A DNA stretch of 24,000 nucleotides, taken from contig JBCBRF010000025.1 in NCBI GenBank assembly GCA_039819865.1, positions 4,333 through 28,332 on the forward strand. The letters are read 5' to 3'. This document shows positions 5,646 to 20,618 of this stretch, in pieces (the first letter of the stretch is position 1; each line of letters opens with the position of its first letter). Source of the stretch: Pseudomonadota bacterium. GTDB taxonomy: Bacteria > Pseudomonadota > Alphaproteobacteria > Rhodobacterales > Rhodobacteraceae. The translations under genes were made by a program, and so were the position numbers. The notes under the pieces were generated by a model. The model saw only the letters and a list, made by a program, of their open reading frames with translations. It made no database searches and was not told where the DNA came from.

Positions 5646-6341
5646 TCAGAAGCGTTGATCGTAGGCGGGCGGCCGCTGCGCGTCGGCGCGGCGCGGGATG
5701 CGGATCTCGAGGATGCCGTTGATCAGGCGGGTCTCCGCCCGCTCGCGGACGGCGTCCTCGTCGATGTCGGCGGGCAGCCGCGCCTCGCCGCGGAACTTGC
5801 GCGCGCCGGCGGTCTCGATCGCGAGCATCGGGCCCTCGGCGCGGAGCACGACGTCGTCCGGCGCGACGCCCGGCAGTTCGACCACGGCGACCCAGGCGTC
5901 CGCCTCGTCATAGACGTCGAGGACGGCTTCGCGCACGCGCTCCGGCGCGGGGCCCTGCGCGACGCTTTCGCCGCGGTCCTTCAATTCAAAATCGTTCGCT
6001 CCGGAGGCGTCGTCCTGGTCGGGGCGGATCGGACGGGCGCGCACGCCCCAGGAGGCGGTCACGCCGCCTTTCGCCACCGCGTCGCCGTCGCGGGCGCGTT
6101 TCTCCAACTCGCCGGCCAGGGTGTGGAGCGCGCCCGCGAGGCCGCCCGCCACGCCTTGCGCGGCGGTCTGCACGCTGTCGAACAACCCGCTCAGGCGCTG
6201 GCCGATTTCGTCGACGGCGGCCTGGCCCGTCAGGGTGTCGGCGCCCGAGCCGCCGGCGCCGGACGTCTCCGCGCCCGCGCTCGACCCGGCCGTTTTGTCG
6301 GCGTCGGAGGCGTCCGTTTGGTCGTCACGCGTATCGGTCAT
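5646..6341 (-). CDS. Hsp20/alpha-crystallin-domain protein (GvpH-like) with a disordered Gly/Ala/Asp-rich N-terminus
   Basis: 231 aa. The C-terminal portion VLDVYDEADAWVAVVELPGVAPDDVVLRAEGPMLAIE...RLINGILEIRIPRR fits the alpha-crystallin domain pattern (LPGV...NGVLEI.iP). AAGGAGAG SD upstream. Confidence 0.85.
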   Translation of the reverse strand: MTDTRDDQTDASDADKTAGSSAGAETSGAGGSGADTLTGQAAVDEIGQRLSGLFDSVQTAAQGVAGGLAGALHTLAGELEKRARDGDAVAKGGVTASWGVRARPIRPDQDDASGANDFELKDRGESVAQGPAPERVREAVLDVYDEADAWVAVVELPGVAPDDVVLRAEGPMLAIETAGARKFRGEARLPADIDEDAVRERAETRLINGILEIRIPRRADAQRPPAYDQRF

Positions 6342-6357: not shown

Positions 6358-6765
6358 TCAGACGCCGAGCTGCTGCAGGCGCTTTTCGAGGATCGCGAGG
6401 CGGCCGCGCAGCTCGCGGTTCTCCTGGGTCAGAACGGCGAGGCGGGCAGGGTCGACGGTCTCGATCGGCGCCGCGATCGGCGGGGCCGGCGGCTCCAGCC
6501 GCGGCGCGCCTTCGGCGCTTTCGAGCGACCCGTGGTGGAAGCCGGCGCCGCCGGTCAGCGAGGGATCGTGGGCCCACCAGTCGATGCCCATCTCGATCGC
6601 CTTATCGACCGTGGTGATCAGCAGCCGGAGCTTGACGCTCAGCAGCTCGATGCCGACCAGCGAGACCGTGACGTCGCCCGCGATCACGACGCCCTTGTCG
6701 AGCACCCGCTCGAGCACGTCGGCCAGGCTGTCGCTGTGGATCGGGCTGTGGATGGCGTGGGACAT
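6358..6765 (-). CDS. gvpJ: Gas vesicle protein GvpJ (GvpA/J/M family)
   Basis: 135 aa: SLADVLERVLDKGVVIAGDVTVSLVGIELLSVKLRLLITTVDKAIEMG is the GvpA/J core. The longer C-terminal extension is typical of GvpJ rather than GvpA. Confidence 0.9.
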   Translation of the reverse strand: MSHAIHSPIHSDSLADVLERVLDKGVVIAGDVTVSLVGIELLSVKLRLLITTVDKAIEMGIDWWAHDPSLTGGAGFHHGSLESAEGAPRLEPPAPPIAAPIETVDPARLAVLTQENRELRGRLAILEKRLQQLGV

Positions 6766-6789: not shown

Positions 6790-7047
6790 TCAGGCGACGG
6801 CGTCGTTCTCGAAACGGGAATGCTTGCGCAGACGCCGGTAGCCGGTCAGGCCGCCCTCTGCGTCCAGCTCGTACTGGTAGGTGGTCAGCAGGTCGTCGTC
6901 GCCGAGGCGGGCCTTGCTCTCGAGCACGTCGACCTCGACGATCCAGCCGTCCTCGCGCTTTTCGCACCGAACGATGCTGTCGAAGGCCTGGCCGGTCATC
7001 TCGTCGGAGAGCTCGCGGGCGAGGCGGGTGACGTCGCGCAGATTCAT
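6790..7047 (-). CDS. gvpO: Gas vesicle protein GvpO
   Basis: 85 aa: ...EMTGQAFDSIVRCEKREDGWIVEVDVLESKARLGDDDLLTTYQYELDAEGGLTGYRRLRKHSR. This matches the GvpO pattern (DGW.v.vEv.E..R.p...D.l..Y.v.lD..G.l..YrR). Confidence 0.85.
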   Translation of the reverse strand: MNLRDVTRLARELSDEMTGQAFDSIVRCEKREDGWIVEVDVLESKARLGDDDLLTTYQYELDAEGGLTGYRRLRKHSRFENDAVA

Positions 7048-7062
7048 CGGATGGTCCTTTCG

Positions 7063-7314
7063 TCAGGAGCTGTGCGCCGCGCGGTCGTCAGCCGCCTGGA
7101 GCATCTGGTTGAGAAGCCGCACGCGGGCGGCGAGCACGTCGAGCTGGCGCTCCGCCTTCAGACGGCGCTGGTTGATCATGCCGAGGTCGCGCTCGATGCG
7201 GTCGCGCTCGTATTCGAGGCGGACCAGTTCCGCGGCGATCTCGGGCCGGGTCCGAGGCTTTCGCCGCGCGAGCGAGCTCGGACGGGTCGGCACATGGGGC
7301 ATGGTGCGCTTCAT
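7063..7314 (-). CDS. Small basic coiled-coil protein, possibly GvpV-like, translationally coupled to gvpN
   Basis: The track ORF 7063..7626 overlaps gvpN out of frame. The plausible start is the ATG at 7314-7312, which forms ATGA with the gvpN stop (7313-7311). Product is 83 aa: MKRTMPHVPTRPSSLARRKPRTRPEIAAELVRLEYERDRIERDLGMINQRRLKAERQLDVLAARVRLLNQML. A short basic N-terminus plus heptad coiled coil after gvpN resembles my recollection of GvpV, but this was not verified. Confidence 0.6.
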   Translation of the reverse strand: MKRTMPHVPTRPSSLARRKPRTRPEIAAELVRLEYERDRIERDLGMINQRRLKAERQLDVLAARVRLLNQMLQAADDRAAHSS

Positions 7315-8309
7315 GCGGCTTTCTCCGTCGGCGGCGCCGGGCAATGCTCGCGGATCGCGGCGCGCAGGCGCTCGAAGAACTTGCTGCGGGCGTCGGCGAC
7401 CGAGGCGACGTCGTCGCGATCGGAGGGCGCGCGGGACTCGAGCGCGTCGAAGCAGAGCTGGACGAAACGCTCGTCGGCGCAGTTCGGGCGCAGGCCCTGG
7501 TCGGCGGCGATGCGGGCGATCAGGATGGCGGTGCGCATCGAGGGCGGGGCGGCGCGGCCCATCAGGACGCCGTCGGCCTGCGCAGCGGCGCGGAGCGCGC
7601 GGACCAGCATCACGATCGGCCGGCAATGCTCGGGCGCGAGGCGGGAGCGGGCGGCGACGACGCCGAGCTCCGTTTCCGCGTCGAAGTACGAGAGATCGAA
7701 GGTGATCATCCGGTCGAGGAGCGCGTCCTGCGGCGCCTTGACCGCGGCGTATTCGGCCGGGTTCGAGGTGAAGATCGCGCGGAACTCGGGATGCGCCTCG
7801 ATCACCCGGCGCTCGCGGCCCGGGGTCGAGAGGACGAGCACGCCCTCTTCGAGCGCAGCGAGCAGCGGGTTGTTGGCTTCGGGCGGGGAGCGGGTGAACT
7901 CGTCATAGACGAGCGTGTAGCCCTCCTCCATCGCGACCGTGAGCGCACGGTCCTCCCAAAGCTTGGAGGTCGCGCTCTCGGTCTTCGTCACGTTGTGGAT
8001 GAAGCGGTCGTGGACCCGCTTGGTGCGCTCGCCCACCGCCTCGCCCACGAGATTGGCCCCGGTGAACCAGCCGTCGCCGGCGATCGTTACGGTGGGTCGA
8101 TCCAGAGCGGCCGCGAGCTGCATCGCGAGGGTCGTCTTGCCGGCGCCCGCGGGACCGCGGAAATGCACGGCGACCCCGGCGCGCAGATAGGCCAGCGCCC
8201 GGCTCTCGATCGAAGCGATCGCGGCGTCGCGGAACAGATCCGCACGGGGCTTCAGCCAGCGCGCATCGGCGCGGAGGCCTTCGGCTTGCGGCTTTTCGGC
8301 GGCGCTCAT
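7311..8309 (-). CDS. gvpN: Gas vesicle protein GvpN (AAA+/MoxR-like ATPase)
   Basis: 332 aa. Walker A is FRGPAGAGKTTLA and Walker B is TLVYDEFTRS. Also NPLLAALEEGVL, FRAIFTSNP and ALLDRM, which is the typical GvpN signature. Confidence 0.93.
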   Translation of the reverse strand: MSAAEKPQAEGLRADARWLKPRADLFRDAAIASIESRALAYLRAGVAVHFRGPAGAGKTTLAMQLAAALDRPTVTIAGDGWFTGANLVGEAVGERTKRVHDRFIHNVTKTESATSKLWEDRALTVAMEEGYTLVYDEFTRSPPEANNPLLAALEEGVLVLSTPGRERRVIEAHPEFRAIFTSNPAEYAAVKAPQDALLDRMITFDLSYFDAETELGVVAARSRLAPEHCRPIVMLVRALRAAAQADGVLMGRAAPPSMRTAILIARIAADQGLRPNCADERFVQLCFDALESRAPSDRDDVASVADARSKFFERLRAAIREHCPAPPTEKAA

Positions 8310-8456
8310 GGGTTCGAAGCCTCTTCGCTCTCGGTCGGTGCGGCGCGAGGACGCGCCTTCTCGCCATAAGCGTTAACGAGCGAGGCTTTCCCAAGTGTAA
8401 ACGCCCGGGAGGAAGATTTGGAATTTGGTGGGGATTGGGGCGCGCGCGCCGCGGCG

Positions 8457-8948
8457 TCAGGGCGCGGCGATATCGAACAGCCGCGCAAGGGCGGTCCGAT
8501 AGTCGTCCACCATGCCGAGCGCCTCGTCGAGATAGGCCTCCCAGCGCGCTTCGAGATCGGCGTCGGGGTTCGAGGGCTCGGCGATTGCGAGCGGCGTCGG
8601 GTCGTGGGCGGCGAGGGCGGCGCGGACGGCGTCCGCCGTCTCGGCGACGAAGGCCGCGTCGCAGCGGCGCAGGGCGCCCTCGCCCATCGGGCGACGGCCT
8701 CGCACGGCGGCGGCGATGCGTCGGTCGCTGGTCAGGATCAGATCCAGCTCATGCCAGAACGGCGCGTCGCGCCCGTCGCGGGTGTCGGCGGCGGCGACGA
8801 CGACGCCCTCGACACGGAGCGGCCGGAGGCCGTGGCGCGGCAGGAGCAGGGTGCGAAAAGGATCGCTCGGCGACGCCGTCTCGTCGCACGGTCCGCCCCG
8901 AACCGGGACGTGGTCCGGCGCGACGAGGATCTGCACGGAGAAGCTCAC
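8457..8948 (-). CDS. Hypothetical protein (about 163 aa) between the HhH-tail protein and gvpN
   Basis: The 5' part of track ORF 8457..9143 overlaps the upstream gene. A GTG at 8948-8946 lies 5 nt after the upstream stop (8954-8956), with AAAGG upstream. Product: VSFSVQILVAPDHVPVRGGPCDE...APFWHELDLILTSDRRIAAAV...LEARWEAYLDEALGMVDDYRTALARLFDIAAP. High GC3. No family recognised. Confidence 0.55.
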   Translation of the reverse strand: MSFSVQILVAPDHVPVRGGPCDETASPSDPFRTLLLPRHGLRPLRVEGVVVAAADTRDGRDAPFWHELDLILTSDRRIAAAVRGRRPMGEGALRRCDAAFVAETADAVRAALAAHDPTPLAIAEPSNPDADLEARWEAYLDEALGMVDDYRTALARLFDIAAP

Positions 8949-8953
8949 GACGC

Positions 8954-9865
8954 TCAGCCTTTCTTGGCGCTCGCGTCCGCGCTTTTGGCGGAGCCGGCGC
9001 CCTTGTCGGCGGATTGGGCGAAGGCGATCCAGCCTTCGAGATCGAGCAGCGCGCCGATTTCGCCGAGCTTTTCGCGGAGCGTCGCGGCGTCGGCGGCGGC
9101 GAGTTCTTCGAGGTTGGCGACGCCCGCCTCGCTCAGCATCCATTCGAGGCCCGGACCGGCGCCCGGCAGGCCGGCGAGGTCCACGACGACCTGGGGCTTC
9201 GCGGCGCGGCGCGCGCGGGGCTTTTTCGGCGCGACGCGCTTTGGCGTGGCGGGTTTCGAGGCGGCGGGTTTGGAGGCGACCTGCTCGGGCTCGGCGGGCT
9301 TCGTGGCGACGCGCTTCGCGCGGGCCGGCTTTTCCACGGTGGCGTCGACCGCGGCCTCGGCCGGCTTGGCGGCGGCGCGCTTGCGGCGGCGCGGCGGCGC
9401 CGTCGTCTCGGCTTGCGCCTCGGATTGAGCGTTGGCCGCGTCCGCCTTGGCTTTGGCGCTTGCGGCGCGGGAACGGCGCTTTGCGGGCGCCCGACGCTGG
9501 GCGGCCGGCTCCGGAGCGGGCTCGGCCTCCGGAGCGGCATCCTGCGCAGGCTCAGCAAGGTTGTCGACGGCTTCGTCCACCGAGGCGTCCGTCTCCGGCG
9601 CGGTTCCGGCGGCCTCTTCCGCGAAAGCGCGGGCCGCGGCGGACGCGGACAGCGTCTCCTCCATCGCGCGACCGACGGTCTCAACAGCGGCGGTCGCGGT
9701 CTCGAACGCCGTCTCGACCAGATCGGCGGCGGCCTCGACGCCCGCATCCACGGCCGCGCCGCCGCGGCCCGGTCGGCGACGCGCCGCCCTCAGCTCCGCC
9801 AGCTTGGCGCGCGCTTCGCGGCGAACCTCTTGGACGCGAGACTTGTAAGAGGGGGCGTTGCTCAT
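8954..9865 (-). CDS. Ala/Pro/Lys/Glu-rich low-complexity protein with a C-terminal helix-hairpin-helix-like domain, immediately downstream of gvpA
   Basis: 303 aa. The N-terminal basic helix is MSNAPSYKSRVQEVRREARAKLAELRAARRR. The central part has KPA-type short repeats (AAKPAEAAV..ATKPAEPEQVASKPAASKPATPKRVAPKKP). The C-terminus VVDLAGLPGAGPGLEWMLSEAGVANLEELAAADAATL resembles the GIGPxLExxLxxxGI HhH module common in alphaproteobacteria. Codon usage is consistent with coding. Confidence 0.7.
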   Translation of the reverse strand: MSNAPSYKSRVQEVRREARAKLAELRAARRRPGRGGAAVDAGVEAAADLVETAFETATAAVETVGRAMEETLSASAAARAFAEEAAGTAPETDASVDEAVDNLAEPAQDAAPEAEPAPEPAAQRRAPAKRRSRAASAKAKADAANAQSEAQAETTAPPRRRKRAAAKPAEAAVDATVEKPARAKRVATKPAEPEQVASKPAASKPATPKRVAPKKPRARRAAKPQVVVDLAGLPGAGPGLEWMLSEAGVANLEELAAADAATLREKLGEIGALLDLEGWIAFAQSADKGAGSAKSADASAKKG

Positions 9866-9908
9866 GGCGTCGGACCGCTCGTAAATAAAAAACCCACAAA
9901 CGAATGCG

Positions 9909-9946
9909 CGGCGGCGGTCTGGACGCGTCGGCCCGCACCGCCGCCG
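9909..9946 (-). terminator. GC-rich hairpin just downstream of gvpA; putative partial terminator or attenuator
   Basis: A perfect 10-bp stem pairs CGGCGGCGGT (9909-9918) with ACCGCCGCCG (9937-9946), with an 18-nt loop. On the minus-strand transcript it is followed, after about 14 nt, by GGGUUUUUUAUUU (plus strand 9881-9893). Because the U-tract is spaced from the stem, this is not a textbook intrinsic terminator. Confidence 0.45.
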
Positions 9947-9951
9947 AACAA

Positions 9952-10164
9952 TTAGGCGGCCTGCGGATCGACCGTAAGGCCGATGGCCTCGGCGTATTTC
10001 AGCCAGGTCTCGACCGACGCGATGACCGCGCGAGCCTCGATCGCGATCAGCTCGATGCCGACCAGCGCGACGCGCACGAACGCGTCGATGACGACGCCTT
10101 TGTCCAGGATGCGGTCGACGACCTCGGCGAGGCTGCTCGACGCAACGCTTTTCTCAATAGCCAT
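9952..10164 (-). CDS. gvpA: Major gas vesicle structural protein GvpA
   Basis: [63 protein letters not shown] (70 aa) is near-canonical GvpA. The ATG at 10164 has a GAGGAA SD 7 nt upstream. The track ORF start at 10206 would add a non-conserved 14-aa extension. Confidence 0.95.
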
Positions 10165-10441
10165 GGGGTTTTCCTCAGAGCAGGGGCTGTTCACTCGCCG
10201 CGACAAATCCGCCGACGGCGTGCATGACCCTGCGTCGTGATCGTTAAGAAGTTGCTGAAGCTTGCGGCGAAAACACGCTGGATAATGAAGATTTTACTCT
10301 TTTTTTCGGCGCGAACAGACCGGTATTCGGGCGGCGCGCCGTATTTGTGAAAACGCGATTAACGCAATTCGTCCGTTGTTTGCTCTCCGTTAAGGGCCCG
10401 CGTGCGATGCGACGCTCCGACGCATTCGTTCGGAGCCGACC
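10165..10441. promoter_or_regulatory. Divergent gvpA / tal-pyp control region
   Basis: 277-bp intergenic stretch, locally AT-enriched (ggataatgaagattttactctttttttc). It contains a tandem direct 9-mer AACGCGATT/AACGCAATT (10352-10369), CGTTAA/TTAACG motifs at about 10242, 10357 and 10389, and a 7-bp hairpin GCTCCGA (10414-10420)/TCGGAGC (10430-10436) that includes the tal GGAG SD. The promoters themselves were not identifiable by eye. Confidence 0.6.
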
Positions 10442-12103
10442 ATGGGCCTGTCCCTCGCATCCCTCATCGACGAAACGACGCCCGAGACGGCGTCGCCGGC
10501 CCTCCTCGAGGATGGGTTAGGGCTGTCCGCCGCCGATACGGTGGCGCGGGGCGCGCGCATCATCGCCATCGGACCCGCGGCCTGGGAGCGGATCCGCGCG
10601 GCGCAGGCGCGGCTGGCGCGGGCGATCGCGGAACGGCGCGTCGTCTATGGCGTGACGACCGGTTTCGGGCCGCTCGCCGATCGGCTGGTGCGGCCCGAGG
10701 ATGTCGAGACGCTGCAGCGGAACCTAATCTACCACCTCGCCACCGGCGTCGGAGCGCCGCTGTCCTGGGAAGCGGCGCGCGCCACCGCGCTGGCGCGGCT
10801 CTGCTCCATCGCGCAGGGCTGGTCGGGGGCTTCGGACCCGATGGTCGAGGCCCTGGTCGCGCTGTTGAACTCCGACCTCGCGCCCTGGATCCCGGAGAAG
10901 GGCACGGTCGGGGCGAGCGGCGATCTGACGCCGCTCTCTCATCTTGCGCTGGCGCTTATGGGCGAGGGCGCGTTCATCGATCGCGCCGGGAACCGGATCG
11001 AGGGCGGCGCCGGGCTCGCGCGGATCGGCGTTCCGCCGTTGACGCTCGCCGCGCGCGACGGGCTCGCGCTGGTGAACGGCACGGCGGCGATGACCGGGAT
11101 CGCGGTGCTGAACGGCGCGCGCGCGGCGGCGCTGCTGGAGTGGGCCGAAGCGCTGACCGGCCTGCATGCGGAGCTCTTGCGCGGGCGCTCAGAGGCTTGG
11201 GACCCGGCGCTCTCGGCGGCGCGGCCGCATCCTGGGCAGGTCGCGGCGTCCGATCGGCTGCGCGCGCGGATCGAGGGCGCGCCTCGGATCGACGCGACGC
11301 GGGCGGCCGAGCGGATTCTGCCGCAAAGCGGCGACGCTCCGCCGCAAGACGCCACGCCGCTTCAAGACCCCTATTCGATCCGCTGCGCGCCGCAGATCCT
11401 CGGCGCCGCGCGGGACGCGCTCTCGTGGCATGACGCGGTGATCGAGCGGGAACTGAACAGCGCGTCGGACAATCCGATCTTCGCCGAGGACGCGGCGATC
11501 GCAGTCCATGGCGGCAACTTCATGGGGTGCCATGCGGCGCTGGCGTCGGACGCGCTCAAGAATGCGGTCGTGCTGACGGCGGTGCTTTCGGAGCGCCAGA
11601 TCGCGCGACTGACGGACGAGAAGCGCAATGGCGGGCTGCCGCCCTTCCTCAATCGCGGGCGCGTCGGGCTGGAGAGCGGCCTGATGGGCGCGCAGGTGAC
11701 GGCCAGCGCCCTGGTCGCGGAAATGCGGGCCTTCGGCGGGCCGGCCTCGACGCAGTCGATCTCGACCAACGGCGCGAACCAAGACGTCGTCAGCCTCGGC
11801 ACGATCGCGGCGCGCGGCTGCGCGGACATCCTCGAGGACGCGGCCCGCGTGCTGGCGATCCAGGCCATCGCCGTCGCGCAGGGCGCCGATATCGTCGGGC
11901 GCGAGGCGCTGTCGCCCGCCGGCGGCGCGCTCGCCGAGCGCATCCGAAGCGTCGTGGCCCCTTTGACGTCCGATCGTCCACTCCACGCGGACATTGAGCG
12001 GCTTTCACAGGAAATTGTAGAACAAACCGCCGGACAAGACTGCGAATTCTACAAAAATCCGACCCACGCCAGCCTAGGGAAGAATTCACACCAGGCTCGA
12101 TGA
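10442..12103 (+). CDS. tal: Tyrosine ammonia-lyase (aromatic amino acid lyase, MIO-dependent)
   Basis: 553 aa. The Ala-Ser-Gly MIO triad in GTVGASGDLTPLSHLA is at 10913-10921. Also VYGVTTGFGPLA, QDPYSIRC and NGANQDVVS. The selectivity-switch position reads NLIYHLATG (His98 at 10733-10735). This is the His-Leu state associated with tyrosine rather than phenylalanine specificity in Rhodobacter TAL. Sits next to pyp. Confidence 0.9.
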   Translation: MGLSLASLIDETTPETASPALLEDGLGLSAADTVARGARIIAIGPAAWERIRAAQARLARAIAERRVVYGVTTGFGPLADRLVRPEDVETLQRNLIYHLATGVGAPLSWEAARATALARLCSIAQGWSGASDPMVEALVALLNSDLAPWIPEKGTVGASGDLTPLSHLALALMGEGAFIDRAGNRIEGGAGLARIGVPPLTLAARDGLALVNGTAAMTGIAVLNGARAAALLEWAEALTGLHAELLRGRSEAWDPALSAARPHPGQVAASDRLRARIEGAPRIDATRAAERILPQSGDAPPQDATPLQDPYSIRCAPQILGAARDALSWHDAVIERELNSASDNPIFAEDAAIAVHGGNFMGCHAALASDALKNAVVLTAVLSERQIARLTDEKRNGGLPPFLNRGRVGLESGLMGAQVTASALVAEMRAFGGPASTQSISTNGANQDVVSLGTIAARGCADILEDAARVLAIQAIAVAQGADIVGREALSPAGGALAERIRSVVAPLTSDRPLHADIERLSQEIVEQTAGQDCEFYKNPTHASLGKNSHQAR

Positions 12104-12259
12104 CAAAACTTTCGAAAAAGCCGCCTCTTGGTAACCGCTTGTTTGGGCCTTTGGCCGATCTTGGGCGGAGCCGCAGCGAGACTTCGCGCCATTTGGGCAA
12201 AGACCCGCTGATGCATAGGTATTCGCCAGAATTACCAACAAAAGGAGCTTCGATCTGAG

Positions 12260-12655
12260 ATGGACGAACTCGGAACTTTGAAGAAGCACGCCGGACGCTA
12301 CGAGTTTTCCTTTCCGGAGCTCGAGCTGTGCGTGCGCGGCCCCTACGCCGAGTGGGTGCTGCAGGCGGCCGCCGAAATCATGGCCAAAGCGGAAAAGCTG
12401 CGCAGCGAAGGCCATCTCGACGAGCTCGAGATGCTGAAGGAGTTCGGCGAGGCCTCCGAGGTCGACGTCGACGCCGCGCAATTCGAGGCGAACGCCCGCT
12501 TCGAAGCGCTGCCGCAATGCGTCGTGTCGCTTGGAAGCCTCGACTACCGCTGGGTCGCCGGCGGCCAAGAAGACGACGCGGCGCCGATGACGCGCATCGT
12601 CGACATGTCCCTCACCCGCAACGACACCTTCCTCCGCGACGAACCGCAGGCCTGA
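12260..12655 (+). CDS. Hypothetical acidic protein (131 aa) immediately upstream of pyp
   Basis: MDELGTLKKHAGRYEFSFPELELCVRGPYAEWVLQAAAEIMAKAEKLRSEGHLDELEMLKEF...RIVDMSLTRNDTFLRDEPQA. Third-position GC is consistent with coding. AAGGAG lies about 12 nt upstream. The opposite-strand ORF 12086..13018 is a shadow frame. No family recognised. Confidence 0.65.
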   Translation: MDELGTLKKHAGRYEFSFPELELCVRGPYAEWVLQAAAEIMAKAEKLRSEGHLDELEMLKEFGEASEVDVDAAQFEANARFEALPQCVVSLGSLDYRWVAGGQEDDAAPMTRIVDMSLTRNDTFLRDEPQA

Positions 12656-12697
12656 GCGCCGCACGTCCGAAGCCATCAAAAGACGGAGATCTGAACC

Positions 12698-13072
12698 ATG
12701 GAAATCATCCCGTTCGGCGCCAACGACATCGACAACATCCTGCAGCGTGAGCCCCACCGGGCCGAGGCGCTGCCGTTCGGCGCGATCCTGCTGAGCCGTC
12801 AGGGCAAGATCCTGAAGTACAACGCCGCCGAGGGCCTGATCGCCGGCCGCAGCGCCGGCGACGTCATGGGCAAGGACTTCTTCAACCAGATCGCCCCGTG
12901 CGCCAAAGGCAAGCGGTTCCACGGCGAGTTCTTGAAGTTCGCCCAGACCGGCCAGGTCAACACGATGTTCGACTACACCTTCGAGTACAAGATGAAGCCG
13001 GTGAAGGTGCGGATCCACATGAAGTCGAACGCTGGCGGTGAGAACTGCTGGCTGTTCATCAAGCGCGCCTAA
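12698..13072 (+). CDS. pyp: Photoactive yellow protein (PAS-fold xanthopsin)
   Basis: 124 aa: MEIIPFGANDIDNIL...LPFGAILLSRQGKILKYNAAEGLIAGRS...FFNQIAPCAKGKRFHGEF...NTMFDYTFEYKM.PVKVRIHMK...WLFIKRA. It aligns along its whole length with Halorhodospira PYP. The chromophore Cys (Cys68, TGC at 12899-12901), Tyr41, Glu45 and Arg51 are conserved. The Thr50 equivalent is Ala. GGAGA SD 8 nt upstream. Confidence 0.97.
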   Translation: MEIIPFGANDIDNILQREPHRAEALPFGAILLSRQGKILKYNAAEGLIAGRSAGDVMGKDFFNQIAPCAKGKRFHGEFLKFAQTGQVNTMFDYTFEYKMKPVKVRIHMKSNAGGENCWLFIKRA

Positions 13073-13154
13073 GGTCGCCGAGAGCGCGTCGGCTCGGCCG
13101 GCGCGCCCTCAGCCCCTCCCAAGGCTCCGGCCACCGTCCGTCAAGGAGGATCCC

Positions 13155-13667
13155 ATGAACGCCTACGATATCGGCGCGCAGCAGCCCGTCGACCATCTCG
13201 ACGCCGGCGTCGAGCACATTCTGCGCCGCTCCGGCGCCCGCCCGGTCTCGTTCCGCGGCGTGCAGATCTGCTCGGCCATGAGCTACACCGTCGGCACGCC
13301 GCTCTGGTACGAGATCAACTTGTACCGTCTTCAGGATCAGAGCTTCGTCGTCGACGTCCGCATGTTCACGAAGTCGGACGAAGACAGCGACAAGTTCACC
13401 GTCCAGCACGTCGCGAGCTTCGATGAGGCGGTCAGCGCCCTGGAAGCGTACGATGCGGCCGCAGACGTCCGCGTGAACGTGGCGCTCGACGACCCGACCG
13501 CATCGCTCGCCGACCTGACCTTCCAGGCTCTGGCGGTGCGCGCGCGCGTCGAGGAGGCTCGCGCCCAGTATCGCGGCCTGGTCAGCCAGATCCTGTCGGA
13601 TCTCGAGCAGGTCAGCGTCGAGGCCGCCGGCGGCCAGCGCCTGGTCAGCCACGAGATGGTGGCCTGA
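13155..13667 (+). CDS. Hypothetical protein (170 aa) between pyp and the coumarate ligase
   Basis: The ATG at 13155 is preceded by a strong AAGGAGGA SD. The track ORF start at 13038 overlaps the pyp 3' end. Product: MNAYDIGAQQPVDHLDAGVEHILRRSGARPVSFRGVQICSAMSYTVGTPLWYEINLYRLQDQSFVVDVRMFTKSDEDSDKFTVQHV...RARVEEARAQYRGLVSQILSDLEQV. The stop is 2 nt before the ligase ATG. No family recognised. Confidence 0.7.
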   Translation: MNAYDIGAQQPVDHLDAGVEHILRRSGARPVSFRGVQICSAMSYTVGTPLWYEINLYRLQDQSFVVDVRMFTKSDEDSDKFTVQHVASFDEAVSALEAYDAAADVRVNVALDDPTASLADLTFQALAVRARVEEARAQYRGLVSQILSDLEQVSVEAAGGQRLVSHEMVA

Positions 13668-13669
13668 GC

Positions 13670-14839
13670 ATGCTCCGACGCGCCGAGATCGACCGGCTGG
13701 TCGCATCTCTTGTCGCAGATGAAATCGGCCGCGCGCGGAAGCGTGCGGTCGATTTCGCCGTTTGGGGGGCCTGGACCCCTGAGACCACGGTCGACGAGGA
13801 TGGGGTTGGCGCCGACAGCCTGACCCGGCTCGAGGTCGTGGCGCGCGTGAACGAGTTCTTTCACCTGCATGAGAGCGGCGTCGAGGACTATCTCCTGGTG
13901 CGCCGGACGCTCGGCGACTGGAGCGAGATCGTCGCCGAGGGGCTGAAACTGGCCGGCGAGCGGATCACCTTCCGCAGCTCCGGCAGCACCGGCGCGCCGA
14001 AGACGGCGACCCATTCGATGGCCGATCTGACAGCCGAGATCGATGCGGTCTGGGAGCGGATCGGCCCGCGCGGGCGGATCCTGAGCTGGACGCCGCCGCA
14101 TCATATCTACGGGTTCCTGTTCACCGCTCTGCTGGCGGCTCGACGCGACCGGCCGGTGGTCGAGATGCGCGCCAAGGCGCCGTCGCTGCGCGCCGTCGCG
14201 GATGGCGATCTGCTGGTCGCGACGCCGTTTCAATGGGCGCTCTGCCTGAAGGCGGGCGGCGTGGACGCCGAGGACGTCGTCGGATTGAGCGCCGCGGCGC
14301 CGGCCTCTGAGGACATCTGGTCGGGGGCCGCCTCGGCGGGGATCCGGTTGGTCGAGATTTACGGCTCGAGCGAGACCGCGGGCGTCGGCCTGCGCGAGGC
14401 GGGCGACGCGCCGTTCGAGCTGCTGCCGCGCTGGTCGCGCGGCCCAGGGGACGCACAGCTGCGCGATGCGGGCGGGGCCCTGATCGACGCGCCGGACGCG
14501 CTCGACTGGGAGGTGGATCGACGGTTTCGCCCGGCCGGACGGCGCGACGGCGTGGTCCAGGTGGGCGGCGTGAACGTCGATCCGGCGATGGTCCGCGCCG
14601 TGCTCCAGGACATTGATTGGGTCGAAGAGGCCGCCGTGCGCCTGGACGAGAACGGCGCGGACGGCGGCCGGCTGAAAGCGTTTCTCGCAACCCGCGGCGC
14701 ACCGCCTGAAGAAGAGGCGCTTCAGCGCGTCGTTCAGCATTGCGCCGAGCGACTGGAAGGGCCCGCGCGACCGGCGTCGTTCCGACTGGGGTCCGATCTC
14801 CCGCGAAACGCGATGGGCAAACTGGCCGACTGGACCTGA
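13670..14839 (+). CDS. pcl: p-Coumarate (4-hydroxycinnamate) ligase of the PYP chromophore pathway; short adenylate-forming enzyme with an N-terminal carrier-protein-like segment
   Basis: 389 aa. It has the AMP-binding P-loop SSGSTGAPK, plus IYGSSETAG and a terminal K in NAMGKL. The N-terminal 90 aa contain GVGADSLTRLEVVARVNEFF (Ser50 AGC at 13817-13819). The genetic context, tal-pyp-pcl, matches that described for Rhodobacter and Halorhodospira. Confidence 0.85.
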   Translation: MLRRAEIDRLVASLVADEIGRARKRAVDFAVWGAWTPETTVDEDGVGADSLTRLEVVARVNEFFHLHESGVEDYLLVRRTLGDWSEIVAEGLKLAGERITFRSSGSTGAPKTATHSMADLTAEIDAVWERIGPRGRILSWTPPHHIYGFLFTALLAARRDRPVVEMRAKAPSLRAVADGDLLVATPFQWALCLKAGGVDAEDVVGLSAAAPASEDIWSGAASAGIRLVEIYGSSETAGVGLREAGDAPFELLPRWSRGPGDAQLRDAGGALIDAPDALDWEVDRRFRPAGRRDGVVQVGGVNVDPAMVRAVLQDIDWVEEAAVRLDENGADGGRLKAFLATRGAPPEEEALQRVVQHCAERLEGPARPASFRLGSDLPRNAMGKLADWT

Positions 14840-14878
14840 TCACCCGGGCCTGATCACCCGGGCCTGATCACCCGGGCC
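14835..14878. repeat. 14-bp tandem repeat x3 (CCTGATCACCCGGG), starting in the last sense codon and stop codon of pcl
   Basis: Read directly: ga-CCTGATCACCCGGG-CCTGATCACCCGGG-CCTGATCACCCGGG-CCTGG. Each unit carries two 6-bp palindromes, TGATCA and CCCGGG. Confidence 0.9.
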
Positions 14879-14899
14879 TGGGCGCTGGGCTGACATCAA

Positions 14900-14930
<31 letters not shown>

Positions 14931-15094
14931 CGCTCCTTTCCTGAGAAAACTCCAAGTTATCACACTATATTCTCATAAATTCCGCCCGTTTCAGAACGAT
15001 CTCATCGGAGAGTCTTTTCGAGTTTGTTTTTGTTTTCGCGAGAAGCTCCGGGCGCGATCCGGTTTTTCCGCACTCCTCTGCGAGAGTTCTTAAC

Positions 15095-17692
15095 GTGTCT
15101 GGTTTGAAGCAAGCGCTCGCGGCCTTCGGGCGACGCCTCAGTACGCTGTTGGGCGCGCAAATCTATCTCGCGGTCGCGGCGCCGTCGCTTTGCGCGATCC
15201 TCCTGGCGGCGCCGATGGCGCTCAGCCTGCGGGGGGACTACGATCGGGCCGACGCGCTGCTGACGGCCAGCGCCGCGATGGAGACCGCGGCGCGGCTCAG
15301 CCACTCGATGCAGGGGGAGCGCGCGTTGGCGAGCGGTCTGCTGAGCGGCGGCGATTTTGAAGAGGCGCTGGCGGAGCAACGAGCCGCGACGGACGCCGCG
15401 CTCGCCGCGTTTCGGGCCCGGATCGACGCGTCGACGGCCTCCGGCGCGGCGCTATCGGATTGGAGAGAAGGCGTCGCCGAGACCTTGGCGGGTCTGCCGG
15501 CGCTTCGCGACGCGGTCGTTCAGGGCGGGATCGACGCGCCCGCCGCGCAGGCGCGCTACACCGCGATCAGCCGCTCTCTGATCGACGGCGGAGATCTGGT
15601 GGTCGGTCTCGGCGCCCGCGCCGATCTCGCGACGGATCTCCAAGCGCTCTCGCACCTGCGCCTCGCAATCGATTTTGCGGATCTGGAACGGGCCGACGGG
15701 GCGATCGGGTTCTCGCGCGGGGGCTTCAACGCGGCGCTCTACAGCCGTCTGGAGAGCCGCGCCGCGATGCGGGCGGAGCTGTTCCGCAAGTTCGGCGCGA
15801 TCGCCGAGGCGGGCGAGGCGGCGCGCCTCGACGCGGTTCTCGCCGGAGAAAGCGCGGAGCGGCTCGGCGCGCTCCGCAAAATGGCGAAGAGCAATGTGAC
15901 GGGCTTCGGCTCGCTGTCGGTCGACGAGACGGCCTGGTTCGTCGCCGCGGGCGCTTTCATCGACGAGCTGGTCGCGCTCGAGGCGCGCCTTGGCGCGCGG
16001 GTGATCGCTGCGGCGGAGGCCAATCTCGCGCGGGCGTCGACCGCCTTTTGGGCGCTCATGACGGGCCTCACGGTCGCCTTCCTGCTCACCGGGGCGGCGT
16101 GCTGGTTCGTGCTGCGGCGCCTGCAGATCGATATGCGCGGGATCTCGACGGCGGTGCGACGGATCGCCGCCGGCGCCGCGGCGGTGACCGTGCCGGCGAC
16201 CGGACGCGGCGACGCGCTCGGCGCGATCGCGCGCTCGGTCGAACAGATCGCCTCCTCCGGCGCGGAGATGCGACGGGTCCGCGGCACGGTCGACGCGTTC
16301 AGCGGCGGCGTGGTCATCTTCGACGCGGCGGGCTCGGTGGCCTATGCGAACGAGCGGTTCGTCTCGATGAAGCAGCCGGAGATCGAGGGGACGGATCCGC
16401 TGTCGACCGCGACGCTCTGGTTCGAGCAAATGCGCAGCCCGCTGCAGGCGGCGCTCGGTTGCGAGATGGGCGCGATCGAGACCAAGGGCGGCTTCCGGTT
16501 CGAGGCGTTCGACCGGATCTTCGCGGGCTCGGCCCTGCCGATCGTGAACGACGAGGGAGAGCGGATCGGCGCCTCGCTTCTGATGTATGAGATCACGCTC
16601 GAGAACCGGGTCGAGGATCAGATCGATCAGCTGATCAACGAGTTCGCAGAGGGCAACCTTTATTATCGCGTGACCGCTCTCGACGAAGACGGGGCGGTCC
16701 GGAACAAGTTTCTGGCCAAGATCTCCAAGAGCCTGAACGGGCTGCTGAACGACATCGCAGGCTTGTTCGGCGACCTCGAAGGCGCGATCTCCGCCATGTC
16801 GGCGGGCGATCTGACCTTCAAGGTGGAAGGCGGGTACAAGGGCGATTTCGCCTCGCTCGCCGAGAACCTGAACAGCTCGATGGCCCATATCAGCCAGGTG
16901 ATCCGGGACATCAACGGCGTCACGGAGGATCTGCGGACCGCGGTGGCGGAGATCGCCGCCGACGCTCAAGAACTGGCGCAGGGCGCGGACAGCCAGCGGG
17001 CGGCGCTGGCCGACACGATGGGGTCGGTCGAGCAGATCAACGCGATCGTCGAGACCAACGTCTCGAATGTGCGCGAAGCCGGCGGGGTGGCGGCGGACGC
17101 GCGCTCCCGCGCGATGCGCGGCGGCGCCGTCGCGAGCGAGGCGGTGGCGGCGATGGGCCGGATCGAATCAAGCTCTCAGCAGATCTCCGAGATCGTCAAT
17201 GTGATCGACGCGATCGCGTTCCAGACGAACCTATTGGCGTTGAACGCCGCGGTCGAGGCGGCGCGCGCCGGCGAGGCGGGCAAGGGCTTCTCGGTCGTGG
17301 CGTCCGAGGTGCGGGCGCTCGCCCAGCGCTCGGCCGACGCCGCGCACGACATCAAGGGATTGATCGAGGCGAGCGCCGGGCATGTCTCGGACGGGGTGCG
17401 GCTGGTCGACCAGACCGGCGGATCGCTCAGCGAGATCGCCGAGGCGATCGAGGCGCTCTCGGGCACGATGGAGACGATCTCGGGGTCGGCGGAGGCGCAG
17501 GTCGACGGGCTCGGTCAGATCACCCAGGCGATCCAACGCACGGAGCGCATCACGGGCGACAACGCCAAAGCCGCTGAAGAGAGCGCAGTCCGGGCCAACC
17601 AGCTCGAGGCCTCCGCGGGCCGACTGGCTGAGCTGTCGGGATACTTCATGATCGCCGACGACCCGGACAGGGTCTCGTCTGAAGCCGCTTAG
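15095..17692 (+). CDS. Methyl-accepting chemotaxis protein with periplasmic NIT-like sensor, HAMP, cytoplasmic PAS, HAMP and MCP signalling domain
   Basis: 865 aa, GTG start. TM1 is at about residues 20-42. The NIT-type signature is [19 protein letters not shown]....[14 protein letters not shown]2 is [23 protein letters not shown]. The PAS-like stretch is [19 protein letters not shown]. The HAMP stretch is [27 protein letters not shown]. The highly conserved hairpin is [43 protein letters not shown]. Confidence 0.92.
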
Positions 17693-17946
17693 GCGAAAAA
17701 CGGTCCACGATTCCGCCAACGCTCTCGTCCCTCAATAAACTATTGAACAGCATTCGATTTTCCCGCACGTTCCCGACCGGGGAATGAGAATAGCGGGAGG
17801 GGATTGTGGATAACTTCACCCCTGGCTCCGAACGTATGTTTCATCGTTGCGTCGACGCGGCGCTCGCGGAGCGCGCCGGCGCCAGTCGTCGAACCGAGGT
17901 CGCGGACCTGCGTCCACCGCGGAGACCGAGGCGTGGCCGCGGCTTG

Positions 17947-18624
17947 ATGACGGTGGCCAAGCCCGTCGCGCTGACGCTCATGTTCGGGCTCTCGTCATGC
18001 GCCCTCGAAAGCCCCTCGCCCGAGGCGGACCTCAGCGCCTCCGAGCGGATCGAGATGGCGATCCGGACCGAGCTGGTCTCGGCGGCGCGGGCGCAGATCG
18101 GGCGCACCGTGATCTATGACGGCCAGTATGAAGAGCTGTCCTATCCGATGGGCGATCTGGACCGGAGCCGCGGGGTCTGCACCGACGTGGTGGTGCGCGC
18201 CTATCGCGATGCGGCGGGGATCGACCTGCAGCAATTGGTGCATGAGGACATGGCGCGGGCGTTCACGGATTATCCGCAGAAATGGGGACGGTCCGCGCCC
18301 GATCCGAACATCGATCATCGCCGGGTGCTGAACCTCGAGACCTTCCTCGATCGCTCCGGAGCGCGGCTGCCGTTGCCGGCGGATCCGAGCGCGCTCAAGC
18401 CGGGGGATCTGCTGACCTGGCGGATCAGCGGATCTGAGCCGCATATCGGGGTGGTCTCGGACCGCAAGGACCCGGCGACGGGTCGGCCGCTGATCATCCA
18501 CAACTTCGCCAAGGGGGCTGTTGAGGAAGATTTCCTGTGGGCGCCGGGCTTGGTCGGGCGCTTCCGACCGGACGCGGCCGCGCTGGTCGCCGCGACTTCT
18601 CAATTCAACCGATCAACGCCGTAA
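17947..18624 (+). CDS. DUF1287-family protein, probable lipoprotein
   Basis: IGRTVIYDGQYEELSYPMGDLDRSRGVCTDVVVRAYRDAAGIDLQQLVHEDM...YPQKWG...PDPNIDHRRVLNLETFL...GDLLTW...HIGVV matches my memory of DUF1287. From the ATG at 17947 the N-terminus MTVAKPVALTLMFGLSSC is a lipoprotein-type signal with a lipobox. An alternative GTG at 17806 has a good GGAGG SD but would bury the signal peptide. The start is therefore uncertain. Confidence 0.8.
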   Translation: MTVAKPVALTLMFGLSSCALESPSPEADLSASERIEMAIRTELVSAARAQIGRTVIYDGQYEELSYPMGDLDRSRGVCTDVVVRAYRDAAGIDLQQLVHEDMARAFTDYPQKWGRSAPDPNIDHRRVLNLETFLDRSGARLPLPADPSALKPGDLLTWRISGSEPHIGVVSDRKDPATGRPLIIHNFAKGAVEEDFLWAPGLVGRFRPDAAALVAATSQFNRSTP

Positions 18625-18715
18625 CAAAAGGCCGCCCGCCACGCGCCGGATTGGCGCGCCGCCTGCAAGACGCTACCGCTGACGTCTGCAGCGCGCCCTG
18701 GCGGAGAGGCCGAAC

Positions 18716-20503
18716 GTGACAGCCGCGATCCCTGAGACTGCGTTCGCGTGGGTGACGCTGTGCGTGCTCGCGATGGTTTTCGCCGGGTTCGTGCTCGAGA
18801 TCTTCCCGCCTTACGTCACCGCGGTCTGCGGCGTGGCGCTGCTGCTCGCGCTCGGGCCGCTCGCGCCCGAGGATATGCTGTCGGTGCTGTCGAACTCGGC
18901 GCCCGCGACCATCGCCGCGATGTTCGTGATCAGCGGCGCGCTGGCGCGGACGGGCGCACTCGACCTGTTCAGCAGGACCTTGCGACGACAGGCGAGCACG
19001 AGCCCGACCCTGACGATCGGGGCGCTGATCGTCGGCGCCATGGTCCTGTCGGGCTTCGTGAACAACACGCCGGTGGCGATGGTGCTGATCCCGATCACGG
19101 TCAGCCTGGCGGGCGCGCTCCGCACCTCGCCCTCGCGACTGCTGATCCCGCTCTCCTACGCCACGATCCTCGGCGGCGTGTGCACGCTGGTCGGCACCTC
19201 GACGAACCTGCTGGTGGACGGGGTCGCGCGCGAAGCCGGCATGGCGCCGTTCGGGATGTTCGAGATCACGCCGATCGGCATCACCGTGGCGCTCGCAGGG
19301 GCGGCGTATATGGCGCTGTTCGCACCGGTACTGCTGCCAAAACGGGATTCGCTCGCCGACGACGTGGCGAAGCGCGGCGGGGCGCGGTTCGTGATCGAGG
19401 CGCTGATCGGGCGGAAGTCGCCGCTGATCGGGTTGACGCTCTCCGAAAGCAAGCTGTTCGCCGACAACAGCATTCGCGTGATCGACGTGCTGAGGGGCGA
19501 CGAGTCCCTGCGACGGCGGCTGGCGGATGTCGAGCTGGCGGAGGGCGACCGGATCGTGCTCCGGACCGACGTCTCCGACCTCAACGCGCTGCTCGAGGAG
19601 GGGATGCTGGACCTCCGAGACGACGCGCTCGAGGCGGTCCAGGCGCGGCGGTCCACCTTGATCGAGGCGCTGGTCGCGCCAGGCAGCCTCGCGCTCGGCA
19701 AGCAACTGCTCCGGATGCGGCTGCGGCGGCGCTACGGCGTCTATCCGCTCGCGGCGCATCGACGCGGGGTGAACCTCGCGGCGCGGTTCGAGATCACGCC
19801 GCTCGACGTTGGCGACACCGTGCTGTTCGAGGGCGCGCCCGAGGACATCAAGCGCATGATGGACGATCTGAGGCTGGTCGCGCTGTCGGAGGCGCCGGAT
19901 CGGAGCTTCCGGCCGCATAAGGCGCCGATCGCGCTGGCGGCGCTGATCGGGATCGTCCTGCTGTCGAGCCTGAACGTCGCGCCGATCATGACGCTTGCGG
20001 TGATCGGCGTCGCCATCGTGCTGGCGACCCGCTGCGTGGACCCGGACGAGGCGATCGAGTCGATCGACGGGTCGCTGATGCTGCTGATCTATTCGATGCT
20101 CGCGATCGGCGCGGCGATGCAGAGCAGCGGGGCGGCGCAGATGATCGTCGAGACGCTGCGGCCGCTGTTCGACATGCTTCCCACCCTCGCGCTCCTGTTC
20201 GCGATCTATCTGCTGTGCTCGATCCTGACGGAGCTTGTGACGAACAATGCGGTGGCGGTGGTGATGGCGCCGATCGTGATCGAGCTCGGCGTCGGCCTCG
20301 GCATCGATCCCCGGCCCCTGCTGCTGCTCGTGATGATCGGCGCCAGCGCCAGCTTCGCGACCCCGATCGGCTATCAGACGAACACGCTGGTCTATGGCGC
20401 GGGCGGCTACCGCTTCACGGATTTCCTCCGAATGGGCGGGCCGCTCAACCTGTTGGTCGGGCTGGTGGCGAGCACGACGGTCTGGATTCTGTACGATCTT
20501 TAG
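18716..20503 (+). CDS. SLC13/DASS-type anion permease with two central TrkA-C (RCK C-terminal) domains
   Basis: 595 aa, GTG start with a GGAGAGG SD. There are multiple TM helices on both sides (FVNNTPVAMVLIPI, TNNAVAVVMAPI, ASFATPIGYQTN), arranged as an inverted-repeat transporter. Two soluble inserts, VIEALIGRKSPLIGLTL...GDRIVLRTD and LIEALVAPGSLALGKQL...GDTVLFEG, are typical TrkA-C domains. Confidence 0.88.
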   Translation: MTAAIPETAFAWVTLCVLAMVFAGFVLEIFPPYVTAVCGVALLLALGPLAPEDMLSVLSNSAPATIAAMFVISGALARTGALDLFSRTLRRQASTSPTLTIGALIVGAMVLSGFVNNTPVAMVLIPITVSLAGALRTSPSRLLIPLSYATILGGVCTLVGTSTNLLVDGVAREAGMAPFGMFEITPIGITVALAGAAYMALFAPVLLPKRDSLADDVAKRGGARFVIEALIGRKSPLIGLTLSESKLFADNSIRVIDVLRGDESLRRRLADVELAEGDRIVLRTDVSDLNALLEEGMLDLRDDALEAVQARRSTLIEALVAPGSLALGKQLLRMRLRRRYGVYPLAAHRRGVNLAARFEITPLDVGDTVLFEGAPEDIKRMMDDLRLVALSEAPDRSFRPHKAPIALAALIGIVLLSSLNVAPIMTLAVIGVAIVLATRCVDPDEAIESIDGSLMLLIYSMLAIGAAMQSSGAAQMIVETLRPLFDMLPTLALLFAIYLLCSILTELVTNNAVAVVMAPIVIELGVGLGIDPRPLLLLVMIGASASFATPIGYQTNTLVYGAGGYRFTDFLRMGGPLNLLVGLVASTTVWILYDL

Positions 20504-20618
20504 AGACCCCGGCGCCGTCTTCGGATCGCGCTCTTAGCCGGACCTTAAGCCATTTTTCCTAAAACTGAAGGCGACGCCGTGCGGCCTTCGTCGCCGGCGC
20601 ATCCGCACGCCGTGACGA

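Follow-up and report, generated by a model that had tools for sequence, protein, structure and literature searches.

A photoactive yellow protein module of the Rhodobacter capsulatus type within an alphaproteobacterial gas-vesicle gene cluster

How a stand-alone photoactive yellow protein (PYP) transfers its light signal to the cell has been a question for more than 30 years, and papers from 2021 to 2026 still report that none of its partners is known for the prototype, the PYP of Halorhodospira halophila. The question is raised again by a 24,000-nucleotide stretch of contig JBCBRF010000025.1 (the window), from an uncultured bacterium of the Rhodobacterales, in which the plus-strand genes tal, ORF131, pyp, ORF171 and pcl lie back-to-back with gvpA, the start of a minus-strand gas-vesicle (gvp) gene cluster. 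The initial annotation of this DNA proposed a candidate blue-light-to-buoyancy locus. The region is a PYP photoreceptor module of the Rhodobacter capsulatus type (Rc-type) within an alphaproteobacterial (Rhodobacterales, Neomegalonema-like) gas-vesicle cluster. As the linkage of PYP to gas vesicles is kept in relatives, light probably helps to control buoyancy, and a functional link between gas vesicles and PYP, together with its binding partner PBP, is on the sequence evidence modestly favoured.

The adjacency of pyp and gvp genes was assessed by a synteny survey that had been set beforehand as a test. A scan of the GTDB collection with a PYP alignment, using one genome per species, identified 205 relatives. 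The 80 best of them (51-89% identical) were retrieved together with as much as 10 kb of flanking sequence per side; 43 of these loci have 10 kb on both sides of pyp (full-flank loci). The presence of each gene was scored by tblastn with all window proteins against the 80 loci, and a locus was regarded as linked to gas vesicles when at least two gvp families were located within 10 kb of pyp. Such linkage was observed in 53 of the 80 loci and in 36 of the 43 full-flank loci, with a median distance of 2.6 kb to the nearest gvp gene, and spans several families of Alphaproteobacteria. The adjacency is thus more than an isolated case. What is conserved is a cassette of four genes, ORF131-pyp-ORF171-pcl, lying within gvp clusters: ORF131, directly upstream of pyp, is present in 75 loci, ORF171 in 76 and pcl in 74, while tal is near the cassette in 15, on either strand. 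In most cases gvpN follows the cassette immediately and in the same orientation, and in Rhodobacterales the genes are commonly arranged, on one strand, as ORF131-pyp-(paralogue)-ORF171-pcl-gvpN-gvpO-gvpJ-gvpF-gvpG. The back-to-back arrangement of gvpA and tal occurs, among the 80 loci, only in the window and in its nearest relative, L001 (the closest relative among the loci examined is an uncultured Neomegalonema of the Rhodobacterales). The control region shared by gvpA and tal, to which the initial annotation had given prominence, is thus not a conserved feature. Nor is the richness that had been noted by comparison with the R. capsulatus description peculiar to this locus, since the extra ORFs and the Hsp20 and CDC48 genes are normal for this cluster type.

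The window, which has a G+C content of ∼70%, appears to encode everything needed to make holo-PYP, as originally suggested, with tal, pcl and pyp all present and intact. Gene calls were fixed by GC3 frame analysis, and families were assigned with curated NCBIfam cut-offs and Pfam. The pyp gene (12698-13072, plus strand) encodes a 124-residue Rc-type PYP that scores 177 bits against TIGR02373 (cut-off 143.05), is 71% identical to R. capsulatus PYP (Rc-PYP) and aligns over its full length with H. halophila PYP (Hh-PYP; E 1e-35, 47% identical). Residues Y41, E45, R51 and C68 correspond to Tyr42, Glu46, Arg52 and Cys69 of the latter protein, in agreement with the chromophore cysteine and Tyr/Glu/Arg pocket noted previously. 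Cys68 is located in an APC motif and is invariant in the PYP alignment (A1). Thr50, an auxiliary hydrogen-bond residue of Hh-PYP that is not defining, is replaced by A49; at this position the 16 Rc-type rows of A1 contain Ala in 15 cases and Ser in one. The tal gene (10442-12103, plus strand) encodes a tyrosine ammonia-lyase (TAL) of 553 residues (Pfam Lyase_aromatic, E 8e-151), whose best solved-structure match is the Rhodobacter sphaeroides TAL 2O6Y (E 4e-157). The MIO triad, ASG at 158-160 (GASGD 157-161), is aligned with the MIO position of 2O6Y. The His-Leu state associated with tyrosine selectivity was also borne out, His98-Leu99 aligning with His89-Leu90 of the R. sphaeroides enzyme, a position marked by the H89F mutant entry 2O78. 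TAL reached no NCBIfam equivalog cut-off, the best matches being HAL models below their cut-offs. The coumarate ligase (pCL) assigned to the plus-strand operon is encoded by pcl (13670-14839, plus strand), whose 389-residue product contains the Pfam AMP-binding domain and exceeds the curated cut-off for PYP-type 4-coumarate-CoA ligases, TIGR02372, by a narrow margin (338.6 against 334.7 bits). The gaps separating tal, ORF131, pyp, ORF171 and pcl are 156, 42, 82 and 2 bp, respectively, pcl starting 2 nt past the ORF171 stop codon, and a terminator-like hairpin with a T-run at 15048-15062 (plus strand) is the likely end of the tal-pcl transcription unit. Two repeats were observed between pcl and this hairpin: a perfect 14-bp tandem repeat at 14835-14880, CCTGATCACCCGGG, in 3.3 copies, which begins on the pcl stop codon and contains TGA in each copy, and, after it, a perfect fivefold GCTCGG repeat at 14900-14929.

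The two additional ORFs reported within the pyp operon are real genes, with strong ribosome-binding sites and the same calls in an independent assembly. The first, ORF131 (12260-12655, plus strand), encodes 131 residues, belongs to no Pfam or NCBIfam family, and has a ribosome-binding site and ATG that are conserved with L001. It is 46% identical (E 3e-42) to a 142-residue R. capsulatus protein, PBP. PBP was described as RCAP_rcc01067, located beside pyp (rcc01066), with 142 residues, a mass of 16 kDa and an ε280 of 1.55e4 (Kim et al. 2021, bioRxiv 10.1101/2021.06.01.446672; PCCP 23:17813). At the R. capsulatus locus in our survey (L048) the ORF directly upstream of pyp encodes 142 residues with a mass of 15,994 Da and an ε280 of 15,470, in accord with the published values, while the ORFs downstream of pyp were rejected as the published PBP, since their length and ε280 do not fit. 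At the sequence level, therefore, ORF131 is a homologue of R. capsulatus PBP in the same position directly upstream of pyp. Its fold gave no significant match in the Protein Data Bank (PDB), the best Foldseek hit having an E value of 0.2 (a HicB-like N-domain) and a profile search against PDB sequences an E value of ∼0.9.

The identity of ORF131 bears on how the signal may start. Rc-PYP has two dark-state absorbance bands, at 375 and 438 nm, and in vitro PBP binds the long-lived state induced by UV-A as a PYP2-PBP4 complex, from which blue light releases it (bioRxiv 10.1101/2021.06.01.446672). As ORF131 is a PBP homologue, the first signalling step has been demonstrated in vitro for orthologues of the window proteins. 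The view that no signalling route from PYP to an output has been demonstrated in any organism thus holds, but a first step, light-dependent binding of PYP and PBP, was measured with the R. capsulatus orthologues. The blue-light-to-buoyancy proposal likewise needs to be divided. Synteny supports the connection between PYP and gas vesicles, but the blue-light label is possibly wrong in colour and sign because the window PYP is of the Rc type, described in the literature as a photochromic sensor that UV-A switches on and blue light off.

ORF171 (13155-13667, plus strand), the second additional gene, encodes a 170-residue member of an uncharacterized acidic family tied to pyp. It is preceded by the ribosome-binding site AAGGAGG and was called at 170 residues in the independent assembly. 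A longer ORF of 209 codons (13038-13667) was rejected, as the 170-codon form is preferred by the ribosome-binding site, the lengths of homologues and the independent gene call. No Pfam, NCBIfam or significant PDB sequence match was found for ORF171 (PDB profile search, E ∼0.9). The AF2 model (pLDDT 84.8) displays a five-strand sheet and a long C-terminal helix, and Foldseek searches of the PDB with this model returned nothing significant (best E 0.04-0.1, phage coat and Pur-alpha repeat). A profile search of 1.84 billion representative proteins identified 651 members, nearly all of 150-175 residues, among which there were no informative domain fusions, the longer proteins being tandem duplications or lacking a Pfam domain. 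Up to three paralogues surround pyp in the 80 loci, namely ORF171, a copy that separates it from pyp, and a divergent copy upstream. In the window the middle paralogue is absent, and a divergent member, ORF8457 (∼8457-8950, minus strand, start codon uncertain), is located inside the gvpA operon; it was detected with the profile of the ORF171 alignment (A3; hmmsearch E 5e-6; hhalign 92%, E 6e-7) and is too divergent to be assigned to one of the three paralogue classes. The five most distant loci, L076-L080, which derive from Azospirillaceae, Pseudobdellovibrionaceae, Sphingomonadales, Acetobacteraceae and Falsiroseomonas, are without PBP. In four of them ORF171 paralogues flank pyp on both sides, L078 has one, downstream, and gvpA and gvpN are near pyp in two (L079 and L080). 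Because these loci retain ORF171 paralogues without PBP, and with or without gvp genes, the ORF171 family is more closely tied to PYP than PBP is.

The charges of these proteins are complementary. The median pI is 4.6 for both the PBP and the ORF171 family and 9.1 for the PYP alignment (9.5 for the window PYP, 4.6 for the window ORF171), and the two partner families have net charges of -11 to -14 (alignments A2 and A3); H. halophila PYP is the acidic member of A1, with a pI of ∼4.8. Acidic partner families and a basic PYP make contacts between proteins a more likely mechanism than the direct binding of DNA by PBP or ORF171. A third protein associated with the module is ORF303 (8954-9865, minus strand), the product of the second gene of the gvpA operon, which is basic (pI 9.3) and Ala/Lys/Pro-rich, with a C-terminal helix-hairpin-helix (HhH)-like domain whose HHH_5 match is sub-threshold. 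This C-terminal domain has homologues in 44 of the 80 loci, most of them encoded 1-2 kb upstream of pyp and divergently to the PBP gene. ORF303 could be a DNA-binding protein or a GvpC-like protein of the vesicle surface.

The tal start codon is the ATG at 10442, so that the gap between the divergent gvpA and tal genes (10165-10441, measured from ATG to ATG) is exactly 277 bp, as first described. Two sequences resembling CtrA boxes are located in this region, each starting 94 nt upstream of the ATG that it faces: TCAG-N7-TTAAC (10243-10258, minus strand) on the gvpA side and TGAA-N7-TTAAC (10348-10363, plus strand) on the tal side. The pattern TNA-N8-TTAAC, which was defined after the sites were seen, has only these two matches in the 24-kb window, in opposite orientations, against 0.06 expected. 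The block on the gvpA side, GTTAAGAAGTTGCTGA, is identical in L001. When the sequence preceding the PBP gene was searched in 75 loci by expectation maximization, the motif TTAAC-N6-TT[C/A]A was recovered at a fixed distance, and the tal-side box occupies the position that this conserved motif has in front of the first gene of the cassette in related loci. TTAA-N7-TTAA, with up to two mismatches, was found at -112 to -85 relative to that gene in 41 of the 75 loci, against 6.3 on average and 12 at most in shuffled sequences, statistics that are inflated by sequence relatedness. A scan of 9800-15200 for sigma-70 consensus promoters found none. The geometry of the motif is that of a CtrA box, and its assignment to CtrA is suggested by the motif together with the literature. 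The gas-vesicle genes belong to the CtrA regulon in R. capsulatus and Cereibacter sphaeroides, CtrA-dependent gas vesicles are visible, and a gvpN::uidA fusion needs CtrA (PMC7232146, PMC9430884, PMC11999139). The gvp clusters of these species are of the same type as that of the window; CtrA control is experimental in the former, in papers that make no mention of PYP, and a motif prediction in the latter.

These observations are consistent with the following model. TAL would convert tyrosine to p-coumarate, which pCL would activate for attachment to Cys68 of PYP. By analogy with the R. capsulatus orthologues, UV-A would then generate a long-lived PYP state that binds a dimer of the acidic PBP (ORF131), and blue light would dissociate the complex. 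Conserved synteny suggests that this light-switched association may control the number of gas vesicles, and hence buoyancy. The acidic proteins of the ORF171 family (ORF171, and ORF8457 in the gvp operon) probably act with PYP-PBP. A protein-protein mechanism is favoured, in which a factor of assembly or regulation may be sequestered or released, and a candidate for such a target is ORF303, the conserved basic HhH protein. Motifs and literature suggest that gvpA-ORF303-ORF8457(-gvpN...) and tal-PBP-pyp-ORF171-pcl would be co-transcribed on demand from promoters with CtrA-type boxes, which matches the CtrA dependence of gvp genes in R. capsulatus and C. sphaeroides. In its fullest form the model, which is put forward tentatively as one possibility, holds that PBP, the ORF171 superfamily, ORF303 and the basic Rc-type PYP constitute a UV-A/blue photochromic protein-protein switch, integral to alphaproteobacterial gvp clusters and acting on vesicle assembly or gvp expression, with the ORF171 family as a second, older class of PYP partner.

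Several points weigh against a link from PYP and PBP to gas vesicles. The link rests on gene neighbourhood, and the survey covers the Rc-type clade alone because the loci are the best 80 of 205 matches. In seven of the 43 full-flank loci the cassette is present without a gvp cluster within 10 kb (six contain no gvp family and one a lone gvpA), and therefore the output need not be gas vesicles everywhere; two inspected loci of this kind sit among housekeeping genes. The UV-A/blue behaviour of the window proteins is extrapolated, because the PBP and PYP are 46% and 71% identical, respectively, to the R. capsulatus proteins that were tested. Both PBP and ORF171 are without a recognizable fold or domain, the mechanism not being readable from either, and the structure model of PBP is only moderately confident (pLDDT 71.7). 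The boxes, besides their post hoc definition, deviate from TTAA-N7-TTAA, TGAA-N7-TTAAC by one mismatch and TCAG-N7-TTAAC by two. A somewhat doubtful alternative to a functional link is co-regulation without any signal passing between the module and the gvp genes, which would be kept together as members of the same CtrA-controlled planktonic-lifestyle regulon, inherited as one island, with PYP signalling elsewhere or modulating only its own partners. CtrA-like boxes do precede both transcription units, and the cassette in the 41 loci mentioned above, and the Rhodobacter CtrA regulon also spans motility, chemotaxis and c-di-GMP genes (PMC7232146). The persistence of the cassette in the seven full-flank loci without adjacent gvp genes, and of ORF171 paralogues beside pyp even in the distant gvp-less loci L076 and L077, also fits this explanation. 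Flagellar and chemotaxis genes, other functions of the CtrA regulon, are, however, not beside the cassette; in 36 of the 43 full-flank loci it is gvp genes only. Moreover, the cassette is contiguous and co-directional with gvpN in most loci, and an ORF171 paralogue is located inside the window gvp operon, an interleaving typical of functional partners.

It is improbable that the output is instead taxis or c-di-GMP, exerted through the chemoreceptor (MCP) encoded downstream of pcl or the PAS-GGDEF protein encoded 5.8 kb downstream, as has been proposed for Leptospira and Idiomarina. The MCP gene (15095-17692, plus strand; Pfam NIT, HAMP and MCPsignal) is directly downstream, as initially reported, beginning 255 bp past pcl, an arrangement shared by the two closest relatives, L001 and L008. 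The GGDEF gene is preceded by a TTAA-N7-TTAA-like box, and in published neighbourhood surveys MCPs and GGDEF proteins are associated with PYPs of other clades (PMC9664959). Each of the two genes, however, is found in only two of the 80 loci. In addition, a terminator-like hairpin separates pcl from the MCP gene, and the receptor has a periplasmic NIT sensor domain of its own, in contrast to the sensor-less receptors beside Leptospira PYPs. The MCP is, for these reasons, probably not part of the PYP system. An accidental adjacency, in which a mobile or recently rearranged pyp operon landed beside gvpA, would be consistent with the restriction of the exact back-to-back arrangement to the window and L001, and with a tal gene that is near the cassette in only 15 loci, on either strand, the region having clearly been rearranged in evolution. 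This explanation is nevertheless effectively refuted by the survey, as random placement in a ∼4-Mb genome would yield well under one linked locus where 36 of 43 were found, and the cassette is not flanked by mobile-element genes, tRNA genes or a break in composition.

Counting from gvpA as far as the edge of the window, the minus-strand cluster with which the module is associated has 13 credible ORFs; the initial count of at least 14 gas-vesicle genes is reached only by including a doubtful ORF of 57 codons. Gvp family signatures are present in eight of the minus-strand ORFs, namely GvpA, a GvpN-type AAA_5 protein, GvpO, GvpJ, GvpG and three GvpF/L proteins. The major structural protein GvpA (9952-10164; 70 residues) scores 123.9 bits against NF006874 (cut-off 100; Pfam Gas_vesicle, E 6e-16) and is 98% identical to GvpA of L001 and 82% identical to that of R. 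capsulatus; its gene starts at the ATG at 10164, behind the ribosome-binding site GAGGAAAA. Beyond ORF303 and ORF8457 the cluster continues with gvpN (7311-8309; AAA_5 ATPase, E 3e-15), homologues of which are directly 3' of pcl in most related loci, and with ORF83 (7063-7314), a small conserved ORF without a Pfam family that was identified by the GC3 frame plot and by tblastn matches in five related gvp clusters. These genes are followed by gvpO (6790-7047; Pfam GvpO, E 2e-17), a gvpJ-type gene (6358-6765; Gas_vesicle, E 9e-18), an Hsp20-family gene in a GvpH-like position (5646-6341; HSP20, E 3e-5), gvpF/L (4783-5637; GvpL_GvpF, E 5e-51), gvpG (4508-4756; GvpG, E 6e-22) and a CDC48-type double AAA+ ATPase (1899-4187; AAA, E 6e-88; CDC48_N, E 8e-16) that is kept in related gvp clusters. 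The last two genes are a gvpL/F (871-1902; GvpL_GvpF, E 5e-15) with a weak C-terminal DnaJ-like motif (E 0.005, below the cut-off) and a third gvpL/F (3-824; E 2e-22) that is truncated by the window edge. The Hsp20 protein, the CDC48-type ATPase and the sub-threshold DnaJ motif are in accord with the chaperone genes previously placed within the operon. No tblastn match to gvpK, which is present in 22 related loci, was found in the window, most likely because the cluster runs off its left end.

Three features of the spacers in this cluster were also recorded. A terminator-like hairpin with a T-run (9894-9911, minus strand) is located in the 86-bp gap just 3' of gvpA and could be an attenuator that yields more gvpA transcript than downstream transcript. 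The 320-bp gap between gvpG and the CDC48-type ATPase gene (4188-4507) is partly of low G+C content, has the doubtful 57-codon ORF as its sole ORF and is a possible site of an internal promoter. In the spacer of 147 bp preceding gvpN there is a palindromic GTTAAC (8372-8377), a CtrA half-site, and no full box. Rfam and tRNA scans of the window returned nothing, and a metagenome scan with GvpN, directed at the share of gvp clusters without pyp, returned four distant loci only. Downstream of the MCP gene, positions 17806-23426 encode proteins unrelated to the finding (a DUF1287 protein, a CitMHS/TrkA_C transporter, the PAS-GGDEF cyclase and, on the minus strand, a zinc alcohol dehydrogenase), a gene set that is also located 3' of the cassette in L001. 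The box upstream of the PAS-GGDEF gene (20619-22019) is TTAG-N7-TTAA (20534-20548, plus strand), one mismatch from a CtrA box and 71-85 nt upstream of the gene. In R. capsulatus, c-di-GMP genes are CtrA targets.

The PYP of H. halophila is the prototype of these photoreceptors and is associated with negative phototaxis; to our knowledge its gene is not in a gas-vesicle gene context. The H. halophila pyp-pcl-tal system resembles that of the window in its TAL/pCL chromophore pathway, the fold of PYP and residues Tyr42, Glu46, Arg52 and Cys69, but Hh-PYP is acidic and the window PYP basic. H. halophila is without a PBP homologue and its PYP does not bind PBP (bioRxiv 10.1101/2021.06.01.446672). 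The closest known system is that of R. capsulatus, which, like the window, contains gvpA, tal, an ORF303-like HhH protein, PBP, pyp, ORF171-family genes and pcl, flanked by gvpN, gvpO, gvpJ, gvpF, gvpG, gvpL and gvpK, and whose PYP also has Ala in place of Thr50. The two loci differ in that gvpA and tal are convergent in R. capsulatus and divergent in the window, and in that R. capsulatus has the middle ORF171 paralogue between pyp and ORF171, a slot that is empty in the window, where the divergent paralogue is instead in the gvpA operon. Furthermore, the window, unlike R. capsulatus, has an MCP gene downstream and derives from an uncultured relative of Neomegalonema with ∼70% G+C. That the idea of a connection between PYP and gas vesicles is not new was correctly stated at the outset, the R. 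capsulatus context having been noted by Kyndt et al. (2004, Biochemistry 43:1809), as cited in PMC3646047 and PMC3594816, and reviews repeat 'cell buoyancy' as the presumed role. Loktanella sp. SE-62 also has an R. capsulatus-type gvp cluster close to a PYP gene; this linkage was mentioned in passing, the cassette composition and partners not being described (Vollmers et al. 2013, PMC3646047). For other stand-alone or fused PYPs, such as that of Idiomarina loihiensis beside a GGDEF protein, those of Leptospira beside a sensor-less MCP and the Ppr/Ppd fusions, the partner of the stand-alone protein was, as in the window, guessed from neighbouring genes, and the proposed outputs differ from gas vesicles (Xing et al. 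2022, PMC9664959). That survey of PYP-family neighbourhoods makes no mention of gas vesicles and cites the PBP study in passing, not for a neighbourhood partner (PMC9664959).

Judged by its sequence, the window is a further, well-preserved case of the known linkage between PYP and gas vesicles, with an output step that synteny suggests. Alone, this locus adds little, since the idea was published in 2004 and the bacterium has not been cultured. What the comparison adds is that the linkage is the norm within the Rc-type clade (36 of 43 genomes), that there is a defined set of conserved partners, PBP, the ORF171 family and the HhH protein, and that the phenotype, flotation, is easily scored in cultured relatives, whose gas vesicles are now switchable through CtrA. 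Possible additions to the literature are the regularity of the linkage, the cassette as a unit of four genes, the ORF171 superfamily, the complementary charges of PYP and its partners and the CtrA-like boxes. Should the proposed switch of PBP, ORF171, ORF303 and PYP prove true, a stand-alone PYP would for the first time be connected, by a complete route, to an output in the cell.

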